This document shows, piece after piece, positions 50,639 to 57,620 of a stretch of DNA of 64,000 nt. Position 1 is the stretch's first letter. The number at the start of each line of letters is the position of its first letter. Source of the DNA: Clostridium sp. (GTDB lineage Bacteria; Bacillota; Clostridia; Clostridiales; Clostridiaceae). The notes under the pieces are model-generated. The model searched no databases and was not told the origin of the DNA. It saw nothing but the letters and a program-made list of their open reading frames with translations. The stretch is taken from positions 2,714-66,713 of the forward strand of contig NZ_JAJFUC010000089.1 of the NCBI RefSeq assembly GCF_021372645.1. Direction: 5' to 3'. The translations under genes and the position numbers were made by a program.

Positions 50639-51613
50639 TTATTCAACTTCTAGAATATTGAGTACATCTTCTGGCTCTTCTTCTGGTGCTTTTGCTACAA
50701 AATAAACCCCACCTATAACCATTATACTACATACAATTGTTTTTAAACTTATTTCACGTCCATTGATTAATATATCAAATACAATTGACCAAACAACATA
50801 TGTTATATTTAATCCCATAGCTCTTGTTGCACCAATTTTATAAATTGCATTGTAATAAAATAAATATGATATTGTTCCTGCAAGTGCAGTTGCTCCAATC
50901 CACCAAGCTACGCTTGTCCTTAGAATTTCAAAACTAAGTCCTATTCCACCAACAACTGGAATTATTAGAACTCCATATACAATTGCTGATGTTAATTGTC
51001 TTATTTGAAGTGCAAATTCTGAAGATACTTCATCACCCTTCATTCCATATGCACATATAACACATTCACTACCCCATCCAAATACACACAATAAGGCACA
51101 TAAAAATCCTACAATACTAACTCCAGCTTCACCTGGTGTATATAAAATTATTGATACACCTATAATTGCAAATATTAATCCAAGCCATGCTTTTTTGTTC
51201 ATCTTTTCTTTTAATATAAAATAAGCTAAAATTGCTCCAACTGCTGGGTATAATGATGAAATTATGGCAGTATAAGATGGTCCAATAAGTTTAACTGCAA
51301 CTAAATATCCAGTCATCCCAACAGGGCCTCCCATAAGTGCTGCTAAAACAACGAATAATGCACTCTTAGTTTTCATGGATTTAAATAAATTTCCCAATTG
51401 TTTTTTAAACGCAAGATATATGAATGTCCATACAGTTGAAAAGGCATCATGTAAAAATGCTGTTATGAACGGTGCTAAAAATACTGCACCCTCTGGTAAA
51501 AATGGACTCATCCCAAGTATTATTGCCATTAAAACTGTGTCTAATCCCCAAGTTATTGCTGAAGTTATTCCACTCATTACACCTACTTTGTAATTACCTT
51601 TATTATTTTCCAT
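50639..51613 (-). CDS. licB: Choline permease LicB (DMT/EamA family)
   Basis: AFLHDAFS, ALMGGPVGM...VKLIG.S....SLYPA, GWGSECV motifs as in pneumococcal LicB (recalled); located in the lic locus. Confidence 0.82.
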   Translation of the reverse strand: MENNKGNYKVGVMSGITSAITWGLDTVLMAIILGMSPFLPEGAVFLAPFITAFLHDAFSTVWTFIYLAFKKQLGNLFKSMKTKSALFVVLAALMGGPVGMTGYLVAVKLIGPSYTAIISSLYPAVGAILAYFILKEKMNKKAWLGLIFAIIGVSIILYTPGEAGVSIVGFLCALLCVFGWGSECVICAYGMKGDEVSSEFALQIRQLTSAIVYGVLIIPVVGGIGLSFEILRTSVAWWIGATALAGTISYLFYYNAIYKIGATRAMGLNITYVVWSIVFDILINGREISLKTIVCSIMVIGGVYFVAKAPEEEPEDVLNILEVE

Positions 51614-51849
51614 TAAAAATCCCCCTTAAATATAATTACTTATTCTTATTGTAGATACACAAAAACACAAATCTATTTATTAATTGAAGTAACTCTCATG
51701 TAATCTAAGTTTTAATACTTTTCCAATTTTTATTGTGAATTATCTTTTCATAATTGCATAACTAAAACTTTTAGTCTTGGTTATCTATATTTTATACATA
51801 AAAATATTCGCTATACGTATATTGGGCATAACTTTGTTCATTTTTTTCC

Positions 51850-51887
51850 AGTTCATTTTGTGAACAATATTATATTATCATTGTTCA
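51850..51887. promoter_or_regulatory. Candidate operator complex and -10 box upstream of licB
   Basis: AGTTCATTTTGTGAACA (51850-51866; reverse TGTTCACAAAATGAACT). TGAACAAT-N11-ATTGTTCA (51861-51887) straddles a minus-strand TATAAT (51869-51874). No good -35. Confidence 0.6.
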
Positions 51888-51947
51888 ACGTTCATAACAA
51901 TATGTTCAGATAAAAAAATGATAATTTATTTGAAAATAAAAAATAAA

Positions 51948-51984
51948 CTATCTAAAATAGAAATATAATTCCTATTTTAGATAG
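51948..51984 (-). terminator. Probable terminator after the small choline-binding protein gene
   Basis: 13-bp inverted repeat CTATCTAAAATAG / CTATTTTAGATAG. Confidence 0.7.
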
Positions 51985-52091
51985 CCATAAATGCCAAGTT
52001 CTAAATTGCACTTATACTTTTATGAATATATATACTAAAAATGCATAACCTTGATTTCTATAGATTACATAAATAAGTGCTATTTTTAAAT

Positions 52092-52577
52092 TTAACCCCT
52101 TGCCATAGCTCCATCTTGATTAAAGTAATACCAACTATATCCATCATAATAAGAGCTTGTTCTCATAGTTCCATCATTATTAAAATAGTACCAATTATAT
52201 CCATCGTAATACCAGCCTGTCCTCATAGTCCCATCATTATTAAAATAATAGTAATAACCATTTTCGTAGTACCAGCCTGTTGTCATAACTCCATCAGTGT
52301 TAAAGTGATACCAACTATATCCAATGTTGTACCAACCTGTTCTCATGTATCCATAGTCATTGTAGTAATACCAATTGTATCCATCACTATACCAACCTGG
52401 ACCTTGATATCCATAATCATATCCATATCCTTGGTCATATCCATAATCATATCCATATCCTTGGTCATATCCATAGTCATAAGCATTTGCTTTTACAGAA
52501 GAAGATGCTCCTACTGCAAATATACTTGCAGCCATCATAATAGATATTATTGATTTTTTTAAAAACTTACTTTTCAT
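52092..52577 (-). CDS. Small secreted choline-binding-repeat protein with no catalytic domain
   Basis: Signal peptide ending ANA, YDYGYDQGYG repeats, five 20-aa TGWY..G..WYYFN.DG.M repeats. Confidence 0.88.
   Translation of the reverse strand: MKSKFLKKSIISIMMAASIFAVGASSSVKANAYDYGYDQGYGYDYGYDQGYGYDYGYQGPGWYSDGYNWYYYNDYGYMRTGWYNIGYSWYHFNTDGVMTTGWYYENGYYYYFNNDGTMRTGWYYDGYNWYYFNNDGTMRTSSYYDGYSWYYFNQDGAMARG
52407..52475. repeat. Perfect 30-bp intragenic tandem repeat (2.3 copies) encoding YDYGYDQGYG
   Basis: ATATCCATAATCATATCCATATCCTTGGTC repeated with period 30. Confidence 0.9.
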
Positions 52578-52927
52578 TAATATAAATTCCCCTTTAATTA
52601 TTATTTTTGTATGGTTTAGCTACAACATTCCCCTAAAATGTTTAATTATATAGCTATAGTCCTAGATTTTCTCATTGAAACACTATATTTTAAATGAGAT
52701 CATCTATATAATAAAAGTTAAACTTTTATGCTTCAATTATATCATGATATTTTTTATTTTTATATACCCATTTCGCTCATATTTTTATCTATATGACATA
52801 TTTTTCATATTTAATTCCATAAAACTTACGCTATTTTATATTATGATTAAATTTTCATTTGTAAATAACATCTTGTGTGGGGAGAATTATATAAAAGGCT
52901 TTCATTATAAAATCATTATATATTAGT

Positions 52928-54409
52928 TTAACTTGCCTTTTTAATCTTAAGCTTTATAAGTACTTTATAAAATAATTCAAAAAACACTGCATCTTTAGTA
53001 ATTACAAGTATACCCAAATAAACTAATCCACATATTAAAACTTCTATTACACAGGCAATAAGTATATTGGGTATAACAAATTTTATTCCAAATGTTATTG
53101 GAATAAATATTAATGAATAATAAAAATATTTAATGTTCTCATATGCAAATAAATGTATATCTAGTTTTATTACCTTTTTAACCATTCTATATTCTAGTGC
53201 TATTACAATTAAGTTAGCTATAAGGGTAGTTGTTATAGCACTTATCATATTAAAATTTCCTGTGAGAGTTAATGTTACATTGAATATTAAATTAATTACT
53301 CCACCAATCAAAACTAATATGGCATCCTGTTTTTCTTTTCCATGAAGATATATCATTTGATTAGCTATTACACCTTCAACCCCAATGCTTAACATATATA
53401 TTGAAAATACTATCATTACTGGAACTGCTGCTAAGAAAGCTGGTCCTCCAAAAATATATATTGCTTCTTTAGAAAGGCATAAGAGACCTATAGATGCTGG
53501 AAACAATAATAAGAAATATATCTTTATTACCTTTTTCAATAATATCAAATATTCTTCTTCAGAATTATTTCCCAAATAATTAGAAAGTCTTGGCATAGTA
53601 ACTTGAATTATTGTTAAGAGTAACGTATTTACTATTAGCATTATTCTTTGAGCCATATAATAATATCCAACAGCTGTAGTCCCACCAATACTATCCTTTA
53701 ACATTATCTTATCAAGCTGAGTATATAAAACTCCTGTGTTAGAAAGAATTACAACATAAAGCATTGGCTTAACATGTCTAAGAAATTGTAAATTAGAAAA
53801 ATCAAACTTTAATTTCTTCTTTACATATATAAAACTTATTATATTATTTATAAAATTAAAGCCTATAACTAAATATAAATAAAATAGGAAGTCTTTTTTT
53901 TCTCTCACAAATAATAAAATCAGTGCAGAATATATTATTCTAATCACCATGGTTTTAATAGCAATAAAATCGTAATTTTCTAATGCTTCATTAACCCATT
54001 CCACATAAAAAAGATTGAACACCAAATTAAAGCCCATAATTATGCATGTATAAAAATATGGTTCATTCTTATAAAAGATAGCCACAAATATCATATATGC
54101 AGCTGATGCAACAATATTAGTAAGACTTGTAAAAAGAAATAAACTTGTGAAAGTTTGCCTAAGTTTAGTTTTATCATCACGAACTTTACTTATTTCTCTT
54201 AAACCATATTGATAAATTCCAAAACTTCCAAATATCAAAAAGTATGCAGTTAAGGAATCTCCATATCCCATGTATCCATATAATTCGTCTCCAAAAGATC
54301 TACTAACTAAAGGCATTACTAATATAGGTAAAATTATATTAAATAGATTGAGCATTGCTTTGAAAATTGCATTTTTTGAAATTGATTTAGCCATTTGTTT
54401 AGCCTCCAT
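52928..54409 (-). CDS. tacF: TacF-like MOP/Wzx teichoic acid flippase
   Basis: KSISKNA..K..LNLFNIILP, YG..GYGDS...F..FG.YQYGLREISKVRDD resemble pneumococcal TacF (recalled); many TM segments; lic context. Confidence 0.75.
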   Translation of the reverse strand: MEAKQMAKSISKNAIFKAMLNLFNIILPILVMPLVSRSFGDELYGYMGYGDSLTAYFLIFGSFGIYQYGLREISKVRDDKTKLRQTFTSLFLFTSLTNIVASAAYMIFVAIFYKNEPYFYTCIIMGFNLVFNLFYVEWVNEALENYDFIAIKTMVIRIIYSALILLFVREKKDFLFYLYLVIGFNFINNIISFIYVKKKLKFDFSNLQFLRHVKPMLYVVILSNTGVLYTQLDKIMLKDSIGGTTAVGYYYMAQRIMLIVNTLLLTIIQVTMPRLSNYLGNNSEEEYLILLKKVIKIYFLLLFPASIGLLCLSKEAIYIFGGPAFLAAVPVMIVFSIYMLSIGVEGVIANQMIYLHGKEKQDAILVLIGGVINLIFNVTLTLTGNFNMISAITTTLIANLIVIALEYRMVKKVIKLDIHLFAYENIKYFYYSLIFIPITFGIKFVIPNILIACVIEVLICGLVYLGILVITKDAVFFELFYKVLIKLKIKKAS

Positions 54410-54469
54410 AAATATAAGGATATTTTAAATTACCTATCCTCTTATCTTTTTTACTTTTTTACTTTTTCA

Positions 54470-54498
54470 ATTGTACATTCTACGCTATTTATTGTCAA
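54470..54498 (-). promoter_or_regulatory. SigA promoter of tacF
   Basis: TTGACA-N17-TACAAT. Confidence 0.75.
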
Positions 54499-54562
54499 TT
54501 TGCATTTTAATTTTGTATATTTTTATAAATTTACATAACTATGGTTAAAACAAATACATATA

Positions 54563-54620: not shown

Positions 54621-55316
54621 CTATAATTTAAGTGTTCTTTTTAGGTATTCTAAATCTTCAAGTGAGTCTATTTCAAATATGTCGTTTGACTCTATTTTTT
54701 TAATATATACATTCATATCTTTAAGATTATCTACAGCAATATTATCCCAATATAGATCCCTAAAATATCCTTTGTTTACTACTTCTTCAACCTTTTTTGC
54801 TATAAGTCTCCCATCTTTCTCTGTCCAAAAAGATGCTCCAGACATTATGTAGTTAGGTTTATCTCCTTCTTTTCCAATATCAACACCAAATATTTTTTGA
54901 TCATTATCATATTTTAAAATCCACTCGCCTACTAAGTTTTCCTTGCAAGCTGAATAATATAATGATGTATTTGGTTTAGTCTTTGGTAAAAAGTTTCTTG
55001 TAATATAATTATCTGCATCTATAACAAATGCATCTTCAAGATATTCTCTAACTAAATACATAGTATAGATATTATTATAAATATCATATTTGTCATTAAT
55101 TACTTTGATTAAATTATATTTTTTAACCAGGTCATCAAATTTTTCATGTAAATAACCTGTTAATACAATAATTTCATCAATTCCAACTTCTTTTAAATTC
55201 ATTATTTGTCTTTCAAGCAGAGACATTCCATTAACCTCTATTAAAGACTTTGGAATCGTTAAAGTTAAAGGTCTAAGTCTAGTACCCATGCCTGCTGCCA
55301 TTAAAATTGCTCTCAT
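54621..55316 (-). CDS. licC: CTP:phosphocholine cytidylyltransferase LicC
   Basis: ILMAAGMGTRLRPLT...PK, NDKY..YNN, VIDADNY, EW, SG.SFW, LYWDN, EIDS. Confidence 0.93.
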   Translation of the reverse strand: MRAILMAAGMGTRLRPLTLTIPKSLIEVNGMSLLERQIMNLKEVGIDEIIVLTGYLHEKFDDLVKKYNLIKVINDKYDIYNNIYTMYLVREYLEDAFVIDADNYITRNFLPKTKPNTSLYYSACKENLVGEWILKYDNDQKIFGVDIGKEGDKPNYIMSGASFWTEKDGRLIAKKVEEVVNKGYFRDLYWDNIAVDNLKDMNVYIKKIESNDIFEIDSLEDLEYLKRTLKL

Positions 55317-55331
55317 TTATTACCTTCTCCT

Positions 55332-57182
55332 CTAAAGCTTCTTTAAATATTCTTTAGCTCTATTATATCTATCTATTCCGTAAGTACCAAAATCATCGCC
55401 TTCTGCTTCTTTAATCAATGTCCAAACTGACCATAAGGTATCTTGGCATATTTGATGGATTAATAGCCTTCTTCTTGAATCTTTATCTGCTTCTTTTCCA
55501 TTAAAGTACAATCTAAACATTAGTTCAATATCATCTTCTGAAAATTCATTTTCTAAAGAAAGTGCTGCTAAATCCCACATATCATCATTGATTCCACTAT
55601 ATTCCCAATCAATTAAGTAAATTCTACCTTCTGTATCCTTAACTAAATTTTCAGAAACTAAATCATTATGTGATGGTACAAATACTCGTTTGCAAACTTT
55701 TAATTCTTCTTCAAGAGCCATTACTTTTTCTCTTACTTCATCATAGTCCTCAAAAAAGTCTCCTCTATTTTTTCTTAAAATATCCTCATATTTTTCAAGT
55801 TCTCTAAACATATTAAACTCATTATCCATATGGAAATCAGTTGACTCATGTAAGTTTCTTAAAATGCCAGTAACTTGTTTCAGGTTTTCTTCTTTTTTTA
55901 TACTTCTATGAGTTAAAGTTTCTGCATTTTCTATATATTTAGATATTTTAACTCCAGTTTCGAGACTAAAGTAAGGAACCTCTACATTATATCCTTTTTC
56001 TGAAGCAATTGCAGAATTAAACATCTCTGTATTTCTATTGATCATTTGCTCTGTACCAGTTCCTGCAACTCTTAAAATATATCTACTACCTTTAACACAT
56101 ATTCTGTAATTTTTATTTGTCATTCCACCTGCTGGCTCAACTTCTGTAATATCATCATCTTTGACTTTTAAGGACTCACGAATAATATTCTTTATATTAT
56201 TTATTTCATAACTAAGTTCTCTTCTTCTTATGGTTGGATAAAGATAATTTTTAATCTTTTCATATTCTTTATTACTATCTGCATCTCCCCAAGCAAGGTC
56301 ATCTATCTTAACAAATCCAATGTTATAATTTCTAGCTACATCTAACAGTACATACTCATAATTTAAATAAGGATTAACGTTTCCTTTAAATTCTTGAAGC
56401 ATCATTGTGTATAACTTATAAGAAATCTTAGTAAGTCCAATCATTTCTCCATCAATTCTATTAAATTGGTGAATATCCTTAGACATCTTAAATAGGTGGT
56501 TATCTCTTATTTCAACAAAAGCTTCATCTCCAGAACCACTTTCATTAGTGAAAAGTATACAATCACGATTTCCACTTTCCGCCAATTCCTTGATAGCCTT
56601 TCTTTCAAAAATCAAGTCATTTTCAACAAGTAAAAAGTCATCATCAATATAATCTTTAGCTAAAGATAAAGAATGCATAGTTCCAGTCCATTTATAAGTA
56701 TCATTCTTTACTAAAATTATATTTTGGCTATTTTTGAAACACTCTTCATAATACTGACTTTCATAACCTGTTATAATAACAATCTTAGTTATTCCATTTT
56801 CTTTTAAAATATTTAAAGTTCTATTAATTAACTTAAAATCTTCAATTTCAAGCATCCCTACCGGTTTTCCAAATTCTTCTGATTTGCCTGCTGCAAGTAT
56901 TACTGCTTGTTTTACTATCTTCTTTTCTTCTTCATGAAGTTTTAATCTAGTACTTTTTGCAGATGCAATATTTTCCTCTAAAAATTTCATTCCTTTTTCT
57001 GTTACCTTATATAAGGTTCCTCTATTATTAGTAATTCTATCTATGAATCCATCAATAGTAAACTCCTTCAAGACAGCATTAACCTTTCCAAGAGACATAT
57101 TTGTCTTTTTAGCTAATTCCCTTTGATTAATGTTAAAATTATCATTTAATGCTTTTAAAATTTCTAATTTATCCTCTAACAT
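55332..57182 (-). CDS. licA: Fusion: winged HTH + degenerate cytidylyltransferase-like domain + choline kinase LicA
   Basis: NQRELAKKTNMSLGKVN (wHTH); VILAAGKSEEFGKPV (altered NTase signature); GGMTNKNY, HNDLVSEN, LIDWEYSG (intact choline kinase motifs). Confidence 0.88.
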   Translation of the reverse strand: MLEDKLEILKALNDNFNINQRELAKKTNMSLGKVNAVLKEFTIDGFIDRITNNRGTLYKVTEKGMKFLEENIASAKSTRLKLHEEEKKIVKQAVILAAGKSEEFGKPVGMLEIEDFKLINRTLNILKENGITKIVIITGYESQYYEECFKNSQNIILVKNDTYKWTGTMHSLSLAKDYIDDDFLLVENDLIFERKAIKELAESGNRDCILFTNESGSGDEAFVEIRDNHLFKMSKDIHQFNRIDGEMIGLTKISYKLYTMMLQEFKGNVNPYLNYEYVLLDVARNYNIGFVKIDDLAWGDADSNKEYEKIKNYLYPTIRRRELSYEINNIKNIIRESLKVKDDDITEVEPAGGMTNKNYRICVKGSRYILRVAGTGTEQMINRNTEMFNSAIASEKGYNVEVPYFSLETGVKISKYIENAETLTHRSIKKEENLKQVTGILRNLHESTDFHMDNEFNMFRELEKYEDILRKNRGDFFEDYDEVREKVMALEEELKVCKRVFVPSHNDLVSENLVKDTEGRIYLIDWEYSGINDDMWDLAALSLENEFSEDDIELMFRLYFNGKEADKDSRRRLLIHQICQDTLWSVWTLIKEAEGDDFGTYGIDRYNRAKEYLKKL

Positions 57183-57272: not shown

Positions 57273-57289
57273 TGTTCGGAATTTGAACT
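57273..57289. promoter_or_regulatory. Candidate operator TGTTCGGAATTTGAACT at the predicted transcription start of the wHTH-licA fusion
   Basis: Palindromic GTTC-N7-GAAC; 13/17 identical to the licB upstream site; 7 nt downstream of the -10 box. Confidence 0.62.
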
Positions 57290-57296
57290 ACAATTT

Positions 57297-57325
57297 ATTA
57301 TATTACCTAAAATTCTGGATGTCAA
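57297..57325 (-). promoter_or_regulatory. Perfect-consensus SigA promoter of the wHTH-licA / licC operon
   Basis: TTGACA (57320-57325)-N17-TATAAT (57297-57302). Confidence 0.88.
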
Positions 57326-57349
57326 TTGCATTTTCCAATTAATATACCT

Positions 57350-57565
57350 TTAGGATACCCTATGAGCAATTGAGGATGAGTCCCAAAGCAAAAGTTCTGT
57401 CAACCAAATACAAAAGGCTCACAAAAATAAAGTTCGAGAGCCCATAAAAGAAACCCAGCTCACAGACTTTCGCTGTGGAAGTTCAAGTATCCAATTATAA
57501 AATTGAGACTTTCACTTCAAATTTTGGTTCTCCCTTTTGGACTCTCACTTTTGGAGCATCACTTA
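57350..57565. repeat. GC-enriched, structured non-coding element (possible dispersed repeat, MITE or ncRNA)
   Basis: 77 of 200 bases are G+C in 57361-57560 (hand count), in otherwise very AT-rich intergenic DNA. Nested inverted repeats and a CACAGC-GAAA-G(T)CTGTG hairpin; boundaries approximate. Confidence 0.5.
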
Positions 57566-57620
57566 TTCTTAATATTTTTTTAATTTTATAGGAATTTGTT
57601 CCCTCATTGTAAATTATACT

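Follow-up and report, generated by a model that had tools for sequence, protein, structure and literature searches.

The DNA analysed here is a stretch of 64,000 nucleotides (nt) from Clostridium sp. (NCBI RefSeq assembly GCF_021372645.1, contig NZ_JAJFUC010000089.1, positions 2,714 to 66,713 of the forward strand), referred to below as the window. Its lic region, all genes of which lie on the minus strand, includes a gene encoding a 616-aa (amino acid) fusion protein with an N-terminal winged helix-turn-helix (wHTH) domain, a degenerate nucleotidyltransferase domain and a choline kinase domain. Two closely similar 17-nt palindromes were found in the window, one over the expected transcription start (+1) of the fusion gene and the other at the promoter of licB, encoding a choline permease, and the palindrome is conserved upstream of orthologues of the fusion gene in two classes of Firmicutes. 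That it constitutes a genuine conserved cis-regulatory site is close to certain. The full model, in which the fusion protein is predicted from sequence comparison to bind the palindrome and to repress its own gene together with choline-uptake genes, is assigned a probability of about 0.75.

The operator at the fusion promoter (O1) lies 7 nt past the −10 box, from which it is separated by AAATTGT, and this promoter scored 12/12 in the promoter scan, being the sole perfect match within 50-58 kb of the window (Table 1). The operator at licB (O2) follows a promoter with a TTGTTA −35 element, a 17-nt spacer and a TG-extended TAATAT; here the 17-mer starts 5 nt and its GTTC core 6 nt after the −10. 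The minus-strand 17-mer of O2 is identical to the plus strand of O1 at 13 of 17 positions, the two 17-mers being oppositely oriented relative to their respective genes. Both promoters show the layout of steric repression, with −35 and −10 boxes 17 nt apart (within the 16-18 nt usual for this layout) and a repeat over the expected +1. The motif TGTTCNNNNNNTGAACT (TGTTC-N6-TGAACT) has 2 matches in the window (shuffle mean 0.08; 0 of 100 shuffles reached 2), zero extra sites were found there when one mismatch was allowed, and the symmetric core GTTC-N7-GAAC returned only the same 2 matches against 0.27 expected. The palindrome consensus was refined to (A/T)GTTCA-N5-(T/C)GAAC(A/T).

A weight matrix trained on the sites of other species, with the window excluded, gave O2 20.7 bits and O1 20.2 bits. 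The next best position in the window reached only 6.9 bits, which leaves no site before tacF or any other gene of the window. Since 1 of 30 mononucleotide shuffles of the window reached 19.8 bits, comparable to the true sites, a lone site is not significant and the case rests on position and conservation. No riboswitch or leader family was matched in an Rfam scan of 45-64 kb with E values up to 1. A preliminary description of the window had claimed the position of O1 just past a perfect TTGACA-N17-TATAAT and over the expected +1, its resemblance to the licB site and the lack of such a site before tacF, and these claims were all borne out. It had also placed the licB site downstream of a −10 box, which is correct, but the overlapping TATAAT that it took for this box has to give way to the extended TGaTAATAT, which is the −10 element conserved across species.

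The conservation of the palindrome was followed in orthologous loci. The window protein is 79-97 % identical to proteins of the C. beijerinckii group (C. gelidum, C. chromiireducens, C. saccharoperbutylacetonicum, C. saccharobutylicum, C. uliginosum, C. butyricum and C. neonatale). In a Clostridium-group set of 29 loci, comprising one genome per species, GTTC-N7-GAAC was present upstream of the fusion gene in 28, including the 50 %-identity orthologues of C. sediminicola and C. grantii, and the Terrisporobacter locus carries the variant GTTC-N7-GAAA. The aligned fusion-promoter block reads TTGACa, N17, TATAAT, approximately 7 nt and AGTTCAaAnTnCGAACa; the −35 and −10 boxes are kept across the alignment of this promoter class (class A, 26 loci). 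The operator-promoter block is retained, although the leader to the start codon can be anything between 35 and 174 nt long and the sequence around the block diverges.

The full-length architecture of the protein is shared at 28-46 % identity by at least 30 clusters (50 %-identity representatives). DNA was fetched for ten distant lineages (approximately 35-50 % identity; loci of 9.5-14 kb each), namely Bacillus toyonensis, B. pseudomycoides, B. timonensis, Neobacillus ginsengisoli, Paraclostridium bifermentans, Romboutsia maritimum, Clostridium amazonitimonense, two uncultured clostridia and an 861-aa form of the protein. Each of the ten loci contains exactly one (A/G)TTCA-N5-TGAA(C/T), always upstream of the fusion gene. 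It follows a −10-like box at approximately 8 nt in 8 of the 9 distant loci examined for spacing and lies 13 nt past TATAAT in the 861-aa form (L104); across loci the operator typically begins 6-8 nt after the −10, i.e. over the expected +1. For the pooled tally GTTC-N7-GAAC was used, as the stricter RTTCA-N5-TGAAY misses the C. beijerinckii-group sites at the fusion promoter, in which the right half reads CGAAC. In the 39 loci (689 kb), representing genera that include Clostridium, Paraclostridium, Romboutsia, Bacillus and Neobacillus, there were 61 hits, where shuffles gave 4.5. In 35 of 39 loci a hit fell no more than 300 nt upstream of the fusion gene (0.05 expected in total), and the relaxed RTTC-N7-GAAY was found there in 38 of 39 (1.0 expected), so the motif is conserved upstream of the orthologues. 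According to the gene tables, the fusion gene is the only DNA-binding gene common to all loci.

The fusion promoter carries the palindrome alone, with no extra TGAAC. The promoter of licB is built differently, as a module of approximately 75 nt in which the palindrome is accompanied by four further TGAAC half-sites. The consensus of this module in the C. beijerinckii group is T-tract...TGAAC-nTA-TTGynn(−35)-TGAAC-an-TGAAC-aa-TGnTAaTAT-aAnnt-TGTTCA-nAAAA-TGAACt, and the palindrome over +1 is its best conserved part. The licB site is retained in nearly all Clostridium loci that have a separate licB. Within the set of 29 loci the module also precedes the gene of a UgpB-like binding protein and, in three species, a distantly related EamA permease that stands in for licB.

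Table 1 Coordinates of the predicted regulatory elements, genes and protein domains of the lic region in the window
Feature	Position	Strand	Remarks
Operator O1 (fusion promoter)	57273..57289	-	AGTTCAAATTCCGAACA; core GTTC-N7-GAAC 57274-57288; spans approximately +1 to +17
Operator O2 (licB promoter)	51850..51866	-	TGTTCACAAAATGAACT; core 51851-51865
Sigma-70-type promoter of the fusion-licC operon	57297..57325	-	TTGACA 57325-57320, 17 nt, TATAAT 57302-57297
Whole licB-type module	51836..51918	-	Coordinates from the window; conservation in 82 unique sequences
Module, T tract	51912-51918	-	
Module, TGAAC half-site upstream of −35	51904-51908	-	
Module, −35 TTGTTA	51895-51900	-	
Module, TGAAC half-sites inside the −35/−10 spacer	51890-51894 and 51883-51887	-	
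Module, extended −10 TGaTAATAT	51872-51880	-	
Module, downstream TGAAC	51836-51840	-	Often present approximately 15 nt past the palindrome
Fusion gene, 616 aa (wHTH, degenerate nucleotidyltransferase, choline kinase)	55332..57182	-	Pfam HTH_24, NTP_transf_3, Choline_kinase
N-terminal wHTH, residues 1-75	56958..57182	-	HTH_24 E 3.6e-9, HTH_45, MarR; presumed recognition helix approximately SLGKVNAVLKEF
Central PntC/LicC-like domain, residues 90-322	56217..56915	-	6pd1, E 6e-31
Degenerate signature loop AAGKSEEFGKPVGML	56850-56894	-	No GXG(T/S)R and no PK lysine; translation checked
LicA-type choline kinase domain, residues 333-611	55350..56186	-	PDB 4r77, E 6.7e-61, 209 bits
licC, 231 aa, canonical CTP:phosphocholine cytidylyltransferase (MAAGMGTRL...PK)	54621..55316	-	15 nt after the fusion gene
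tacF-like flippase gene	52928-54409	-	
Small choline-binding protein gene	52092-52577	-	
licB, EamA-family choline permease	50639..51613	-	Pfam EamA; orthologues behind the module in many loci

To follow the module further, metagenome contigs were searched with its core of 26 specified bases. This gave 65 further module loci, and in the alignment of 82 unique modules the upstream TGAAC and the −35 box, both outside the search pattern, were conserved in at least 90 %. The first gene after the module in the metagenome loci encodes a 186-aa class-I S-adenosylmethionine (SAM) methyltransferase (n=21), a LicB/EamA permease (n=15), a UgpB-like binding protein followed by two sugar-type permeases (n=15), a TauC-like permease with an NMT1/OpuAC binding protein (n=6), a ProV-type ATPase that passes the TIGR01186 cut-off with an OpuA-type permease-OpuAC fusion (n=3) or a sugar-type permease (n=1). 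In two cases (n=2) the module is followed by genes of aminoethylphosphonate biosynthesis: a stand-alone canonical PntC-like nucleotidyltransferase, a CTP-transferase-like/phosphoenolpyruvate (PEP) mutase and phosphonopyruvate decarboxylase (L091:1-4104 and L086). Judged from gene content, this aminoethylphosphonate operon is apparently under the same control as choline uptake, and the module-driven genes look functionally coherent, combining import of choline or other head groups with a possible alternative decoration pathway. The methyltransferase, the commonest module gene, is monocistronic and is followed by divergent genes (L031, L056, L062, L084 and 17 other loci).

In the distant lineages the operon order is fusion-licB-licC; licB lies within the fusion operon, so one operator serves all three genes, and it is the C. 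beijerinckii group that has licB apart, with an operator of its own. The sharing of an operator between the fusion gene and licB, from which the preliminary description had predicted a lic regulon, is thus conserved, but the limits of the regulon have to be drawn wider than lic, as the module also precedes ATP-binding cassette (ABC) importers, the methyltransferase and the aminoethylphosphonate operon.

The candidate regulator itself was examined domain by domain. On the isolated N-terminus HTH_24 passes with 36.5 bits (cut-off 21.9), and the motif S-x-G-x-(V/I)-N in the wHTH is kept in all lineages. Membership of the MarR family was rejected: PF01047 scored 23.8 bits against a cut-off of 24.6 and the MarR match in PDB reached only E 0.07. 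The wHTH begins at residue 3-6 and the nucleotidyltransferase-like domain at approximately residue 90, which leaves no room for the N- and C-terminal dimerisation helices of MarR. The resemblance to the wHTH of the archaeal riboflavin kinase RbkR is weak: the RbkR-type model PRK14165 gave E 2.7e-6, below the cut-off, and PDB entries 3cta/5trd gave E 0.2. In the C-terminal domain the kinase motifs HNDLxxxN (SHNDLVSEN) and IDWEYSG (LIDWEYSGINDDMWDLA) are intact and align to those of LicA, and the domain is predicted to be an active LicA-type choline kinase.

The central domain is closest to PntC of Treponema denticola (6pd1), LicC (1jyk) being more distant. The PntC consensus is GXG(T/S)RX4-8PK, and alanine mutants of Arg15 and Lys25 retain less than 10 % activity (PMC6697681). 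The fusion protein has AAG-----KSEEFGKPVG where 6pd1 has GGLGSRLKDKTKTMPKG, so that GXG(T/S)R with Arg15 is deleted or replaced and Lys25 is changed to Val. All wHTH orthologues that were inspected, some as distant as 50 % identity, have lost Arg15 and Lys25 in this way, whereas the motif is intact in the adjacent LicC and in the stand-alone paralogue. Going by these residues, the central domain is probably non-catalytic, a pseudo-cytidylyltransferase. As the signature is lost and a canonical licC follows separately, the gene is not an active licA-licC fusion, and its naming as such in the preliminary description was dropped. The wHTH and the degenerate domain also occur together without a kinase, in approximately 12 separate 50 %-identity clusters, which suggests that this pair forms a regulatory unit. 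Some members bear database names such as "winged helix-turn-helix transcriptional regulator" or "choline kinase/predicted transcriptional regulator", and no description of the operator, regulon or function of this regulator was found in full-text searches, the coverage of which is incomplete.

Several unusual family members were recorded. The 861-aa form (L104:820-3577) consists of the wHTH, two consecutive degenerate nucleotidyltransferase domains and the kinase, and its operator sits in the middle of a perfect inverted repeat (arms approximately 25 nt long) that also takes in the −10 box. P0271 carries the wHTH with a duplicated degenerate domain, and has the site. Clostridium amazonitimonense (L101:5001-8446) has tandem paralogues, a wHTH form of 613 aa and a wHTH-less form of 527 aa, followed by licB and licC, and this arrangement may represent a division of labour between regulator and enzyme. 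P0157 (874 aa) and P0229 (796 aa), in which the wHTH and degenerate domain are joined to an ABC permease or a TacF-like flippase, and P0133 (758 aa), with a canonical LicC in place of the wHTH, are candidate fusions or gene-calling artefacts. A 443-bp contig labelled Streptomyces sp. DH5 (L029) encodes a fragment 92 % identical to the window protein of this low-G+C Clostridium (coverage 0.78) and is almost certainly a contamination of the assembly in question.

According to the proposed mechanism, a dimer of the 616-aa protein would occupy positions approximately +1 to +17 of its own strong sigma-70 promoter. The half-site centres are 11 bp apart, i.e. one helical turn, which is the usual spacing for a wHTH dimer placed in successive major grooves on one face of the DNA. 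Because the site lies 6-8 nt after the −10, over the transcription start, it is read as the operator of an autorepressor: the bound dimer would stop RNA polymerase at open-complex formation or promoter escape, and the fusion-licC operon would be autoregulated. At licB-type promoters the extra TGAAC half-sites would probably be filled by several dimers cooperatively, and the shut-off would be tighter than for the regulator itself, whose promoter has to keep some activity. In related genomes the same module of approximately 75 nt lies before further operons for acquiring choline and phosphocholine, and the protein would therefore govern the import of choline and its activation as a single regulon. 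NadR, BirA and RbkR offer an analogy for the control of DNA binding, which probably depends on the sensing of a pathway metabolite by the enzyme-like domains. Since the targets are scavenging importers, activation enzymes and an alternative phosphonate pathway, end-product co-repression by phosphocholine or CDP-choline is weakly favoured over induction by choline. The conserved position at +1 and the fusion being the only constant DNA-binding protein make autoregulation combined with control of choline uptake, as put forward in the preliminary description, the best reading of the comparative data, and on these grounds we infer both the identity of the binder and the sign of its action.

A number of observations weigh against this reading. 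The 39 loci are phylogenetically related and the pooled counts are therefore not independent events, although between lineages the flanks have changed completely and the site and its place after the −10 have not. In one locus (L103) the site is found 246 nt upstream of the fusion gene, beside a terminator-like hairpin and not after a −10 box. The direct TGAAC repeats of the licB-type module cannot all be occupied by head-to-head dimers, which complicates the stoichiometry at these promoters. The degenerate domain is also present in the wHTH-less homologues P0132, P0138, P0148 and P0153, and in P0133 with LicC in front, and is therefore no sensor dedicated to the DNA-binding domain; in P0225, P0236 and P0253 the wHTH is joined to a canonical LicC-LicA, a further caveat to the idea of a dead domain as the sensor. 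The metatranscriptome data described below yield no 5' ends at either regulated promoter, the leaders of the relatives diverging upstream of 57190. The site is missing from two wHTH-less Bacteroidales loci, a weak negative control, as only approximately 0.1 site per locus would be expected there anyway. No co-variation of the recognition helix with the half-sites was seen: ATTCA variants occur in two Bacillaceae lineages, with both halves changed in Neobacillus (ATTCA...TGAAT) and one in B. timonensis (ATTCA...TGAAC), and a third lineage with the same helix keeps GTTCA.

The missing co-variation would also suit a real operator bound by some other trans-acting regulator encoded elsewhere, the wHTH of the fusion protein having another target or none. 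Protein and site are linked solely by their co-occurrence, and the loci cover only 10-64 kb of each genome. Nevertheless, fusion gene and site occur together in 38 of 39 loci from two classes of Firmicutes with no second DNA-binding gene common to them, its place on the regulator's own promoter is the usual signature of autoregulation, and the content of the regulon fits the enzymatic domain of the fusion protein, which makes another regulator unlikely. It is similarly improbable that the fusion protein binds but activates, or acts in a dual manner, at licB-type promoters, where the TGAAC repeats near the −35 might recruit polymerase, for example in the presence of choline, and only the palindrome over +1 would be repressive. 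Three direct TGAAC repeats do flank or enter the −35/−10 spacer at licB-type promoters and none is found at the fusion promoter, and the licB-type −35 (TTGTnn) is weaker than TTGACA of the fusion promoter. However, with 4-5 of 6 matches in the −35, a 17-nt spacer and a TG-extended −10, the module should work unaided, a protein bound at the two repeats within the spacer would shut out polymerase, and conservation in the module is highest not in these repeats but in the palindrome over +1.

A role at the RNA level was considered as well, in which a hairpin at the 5' end of the transcript, made of its first 17 nt, would stabilise the mRNA or adjust its translation. The sites coincide with predicted 5' ends, a parallel change of both halves in Neobacillus keeps the pairing, and the sequences fold slightly better than shuffles (z −3.6 and −1.8). 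The hairpins are nevertheless weak (−2.5 and −3.2 kcal/mol, 4-5 pairs), the outer pair is broken in B. timonensis, the arm sequence itself is nearly invariant over approximately 40 loci with no arm swapped for another complementary sequence, and conservation extends to identical TGAAC half-sites in untranscribed DNA before the −10; such a role is very improbable. Chance resemblance of two AT-rich promoter-proximal sequences can practically be dismissed: the motif was defined post hoc and one of the 30 shuffles scored as high, but the two hits in the window, against 0.08 expected, are both at +1, and 35-38 of 39 loci carry the site against 0.05-1 expected. Repression by the fusion protein thus remains the preferred reading.

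The palindrome was also compared with known operators. The Firmicutes LexA (Cheo) box is CGAAC-N4-GTTCG; here GTTC precedes GAAC and the spacer is 7 nt, so LexA was rejected. In the TnrA/GlnR box, TGTNA-N7-TNACA, A5 and T13 are conserved; the present site has invariant C and G at positions 5 and 13 and variable outer positions (T1, A/T; A17, A/T/G), and the regulon is not one of nitrogen metabolism. The consensus sequences of Rex, CcpA (cre) and CodY do not match in orientation, spacing or invariant positions. TGAAC as the −35 element of an extracytoplasmic function (ECF) sigma factor was ruled out, the conserved −10 being of the TG-extended sigma-A type.

RNA data came from four rice-paddy metatranscriptome runs, with contigs originating from relatives of 95-99 % identity. 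One contig spans 54612-57190 and covers both the fusion gene and licC, which fits a bicistronic transcript, and the two genes are probably co-transcribed. The tacF-like gene has a promoter of its own at 54498-54470 on the minus strand (near-consensus TTGACA, 17 nt, TACAAT) with no operator-like site, and the RNA contigs over tacF end at 54444-54467, near this promoter; on both grounds the flippase seems to be outside the regulon. A contig from run X6 joins 52020 to 54561, skipping 2540 nt with 17 other letters between, which suggests a relative in which the segment with the choline-binding protein and tacF is replaced.

The small choline-binding protein encoded at 52092-52577 on the minus strand is a secreted protein of 161 aa with GYDYGYDQ tandem repeats followed by choline-binding repeats. 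An RNA contig of a close relative is without 18 nt at 52417, a polymorphism in repeat number, and the 158-aa open reading frame on the opposite strand (52077-52553) is a shadow of this gene. Between it and the licB module lies an AT-rich hairpin of 19 pairs followed by a T run (51946-51986, minus strand), the sole terminator-like site within 50-58 kb. The 295-nt intergenic region 57326-57620, between the gene of a 1001-aa choline-binding protein and the fusion promoter, seems by eye richer in G+C than its surroundings; comparison with Rfam, with the 106 fetched loci and with the remainder of the window gave no match, and a metatranscriptome contig (57161-57700) runs through it.

Phosphocholine on teichoic acids serves as the anchor of choline-binding proteins, among them autolysins and adhesins, and to our knowledge the regulation of this decoration outside the pneumococcus is essentially uncharted. 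The present analysis proposes a concrete pair of regulator and operator for the lic genes found in clostridia, in Peptostreptococcaceae and in the Bacillus cereus group. The predicted regulon draws attention to uncharacterised importers of choline or glycerophosphocholine, a small methyltransferase and a link to phosphonate biosynthesis. The compact conserved module could become a choline-responsive expression part in solventogenic clostridia. The protein would be an independent instance of the enzyme-plus-repressor design of NadR, BirA and RbkR, apparently with a pseudoenzyme domain. Taken further, it could be a one-component enzyme-repressor analogous to NadR but of independent origin, in which the dead cytidylyltransferase would sense CDP-choline or phosphocholine while the kinase is active, and which would act through a cassette of multiple half-sites on a Firmicutes-wide choline-starvation regulon with several importers and, in part of the genomes, aminoethylphosphonate biosynthesis, switching wall decoration between phosphocholine and phosphonate according to choline supply; as one joint claim this is tentative and rather doubtful.

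The enterobacterial NadR combines a helix-turn-helix (HTH) domain with nicotinamide mononucleotide (NMN) adenylyltransferase and ribosylnicotinamide kinase. It acts through a palindromic operator as a repressor of genes for uptake and salvage, and its enzyme part senses the metabolite. The fusion protein has the same order of a DNA-binding domain, a nucleotidyltransferase-type domain and a small-molecule kinase of one salvage pathway. There is no homology, however: the wHTH is HTH_24/MarR-like, the middle domain is of the PntC/LicC type, GT-A-like and without catalytic residues, and the kinase has the APH/choline-kinase fold, and NadR-type models are absent among the Pfam and NCBIfam hits of the fusion protein. 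The pathway is choline activation for cell-wall decoration and not NAD, and the operator sequence is different. RbkR, an archaeal wHTH fused to a CTP-dependent riboflavin kinase, and BirA, a wHTH with biotin ligase, are likewise enzyme and repressor in one polypeptide, autoregulating and controlling genes for the uptake or biosynthesis of their own substrate. The similarity to them is limited to the generic wHTH, the enzyme domains being unrelated, and here there are three domains with one apparent pseudoenzyme. As in such enzyme-fused repressors, an HTH and a pathway enzyme are present in one reading frame, and comparative evidence places a palindrome both at the promoter of this gene and before other genes of the pathway.

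Homologous domains in the same N-to-C order are present in LicA and LicC of S. pneumoniae (4r77, 1jyk), PntC (6pd1) and LicC-LicA fusions such as P0169. The protein described here differs from these fusions by the added wHTH, by a middle domain without GXG(T/S)R...PK and by the separate canonical licC that is kept. The same target pathway (licA, licB, licC) is regulated in other ways elsewhere: pneumococcal lic1 has a CiaR-dependent promoter, CiaR being a response regulator that recognises direct TTTAAG repeats, and Haemophilus licA undergoes phase variation by repeat slippage, neither involving a LicA-fused regulator. GbsR and OpcR of B. subtilis (opuB, opuC and gbsAB; PMC7396694) are also wHTH repressors of choline import in Firmicutes, responsive to choline, whose operators overlap promoters; compared at the level of wHTH class only, they differ from the fusion protein in being stand-alone, unfused proteins of the MarR type that serve osmoprotection through glycine betaine synthesis and act on other operators.

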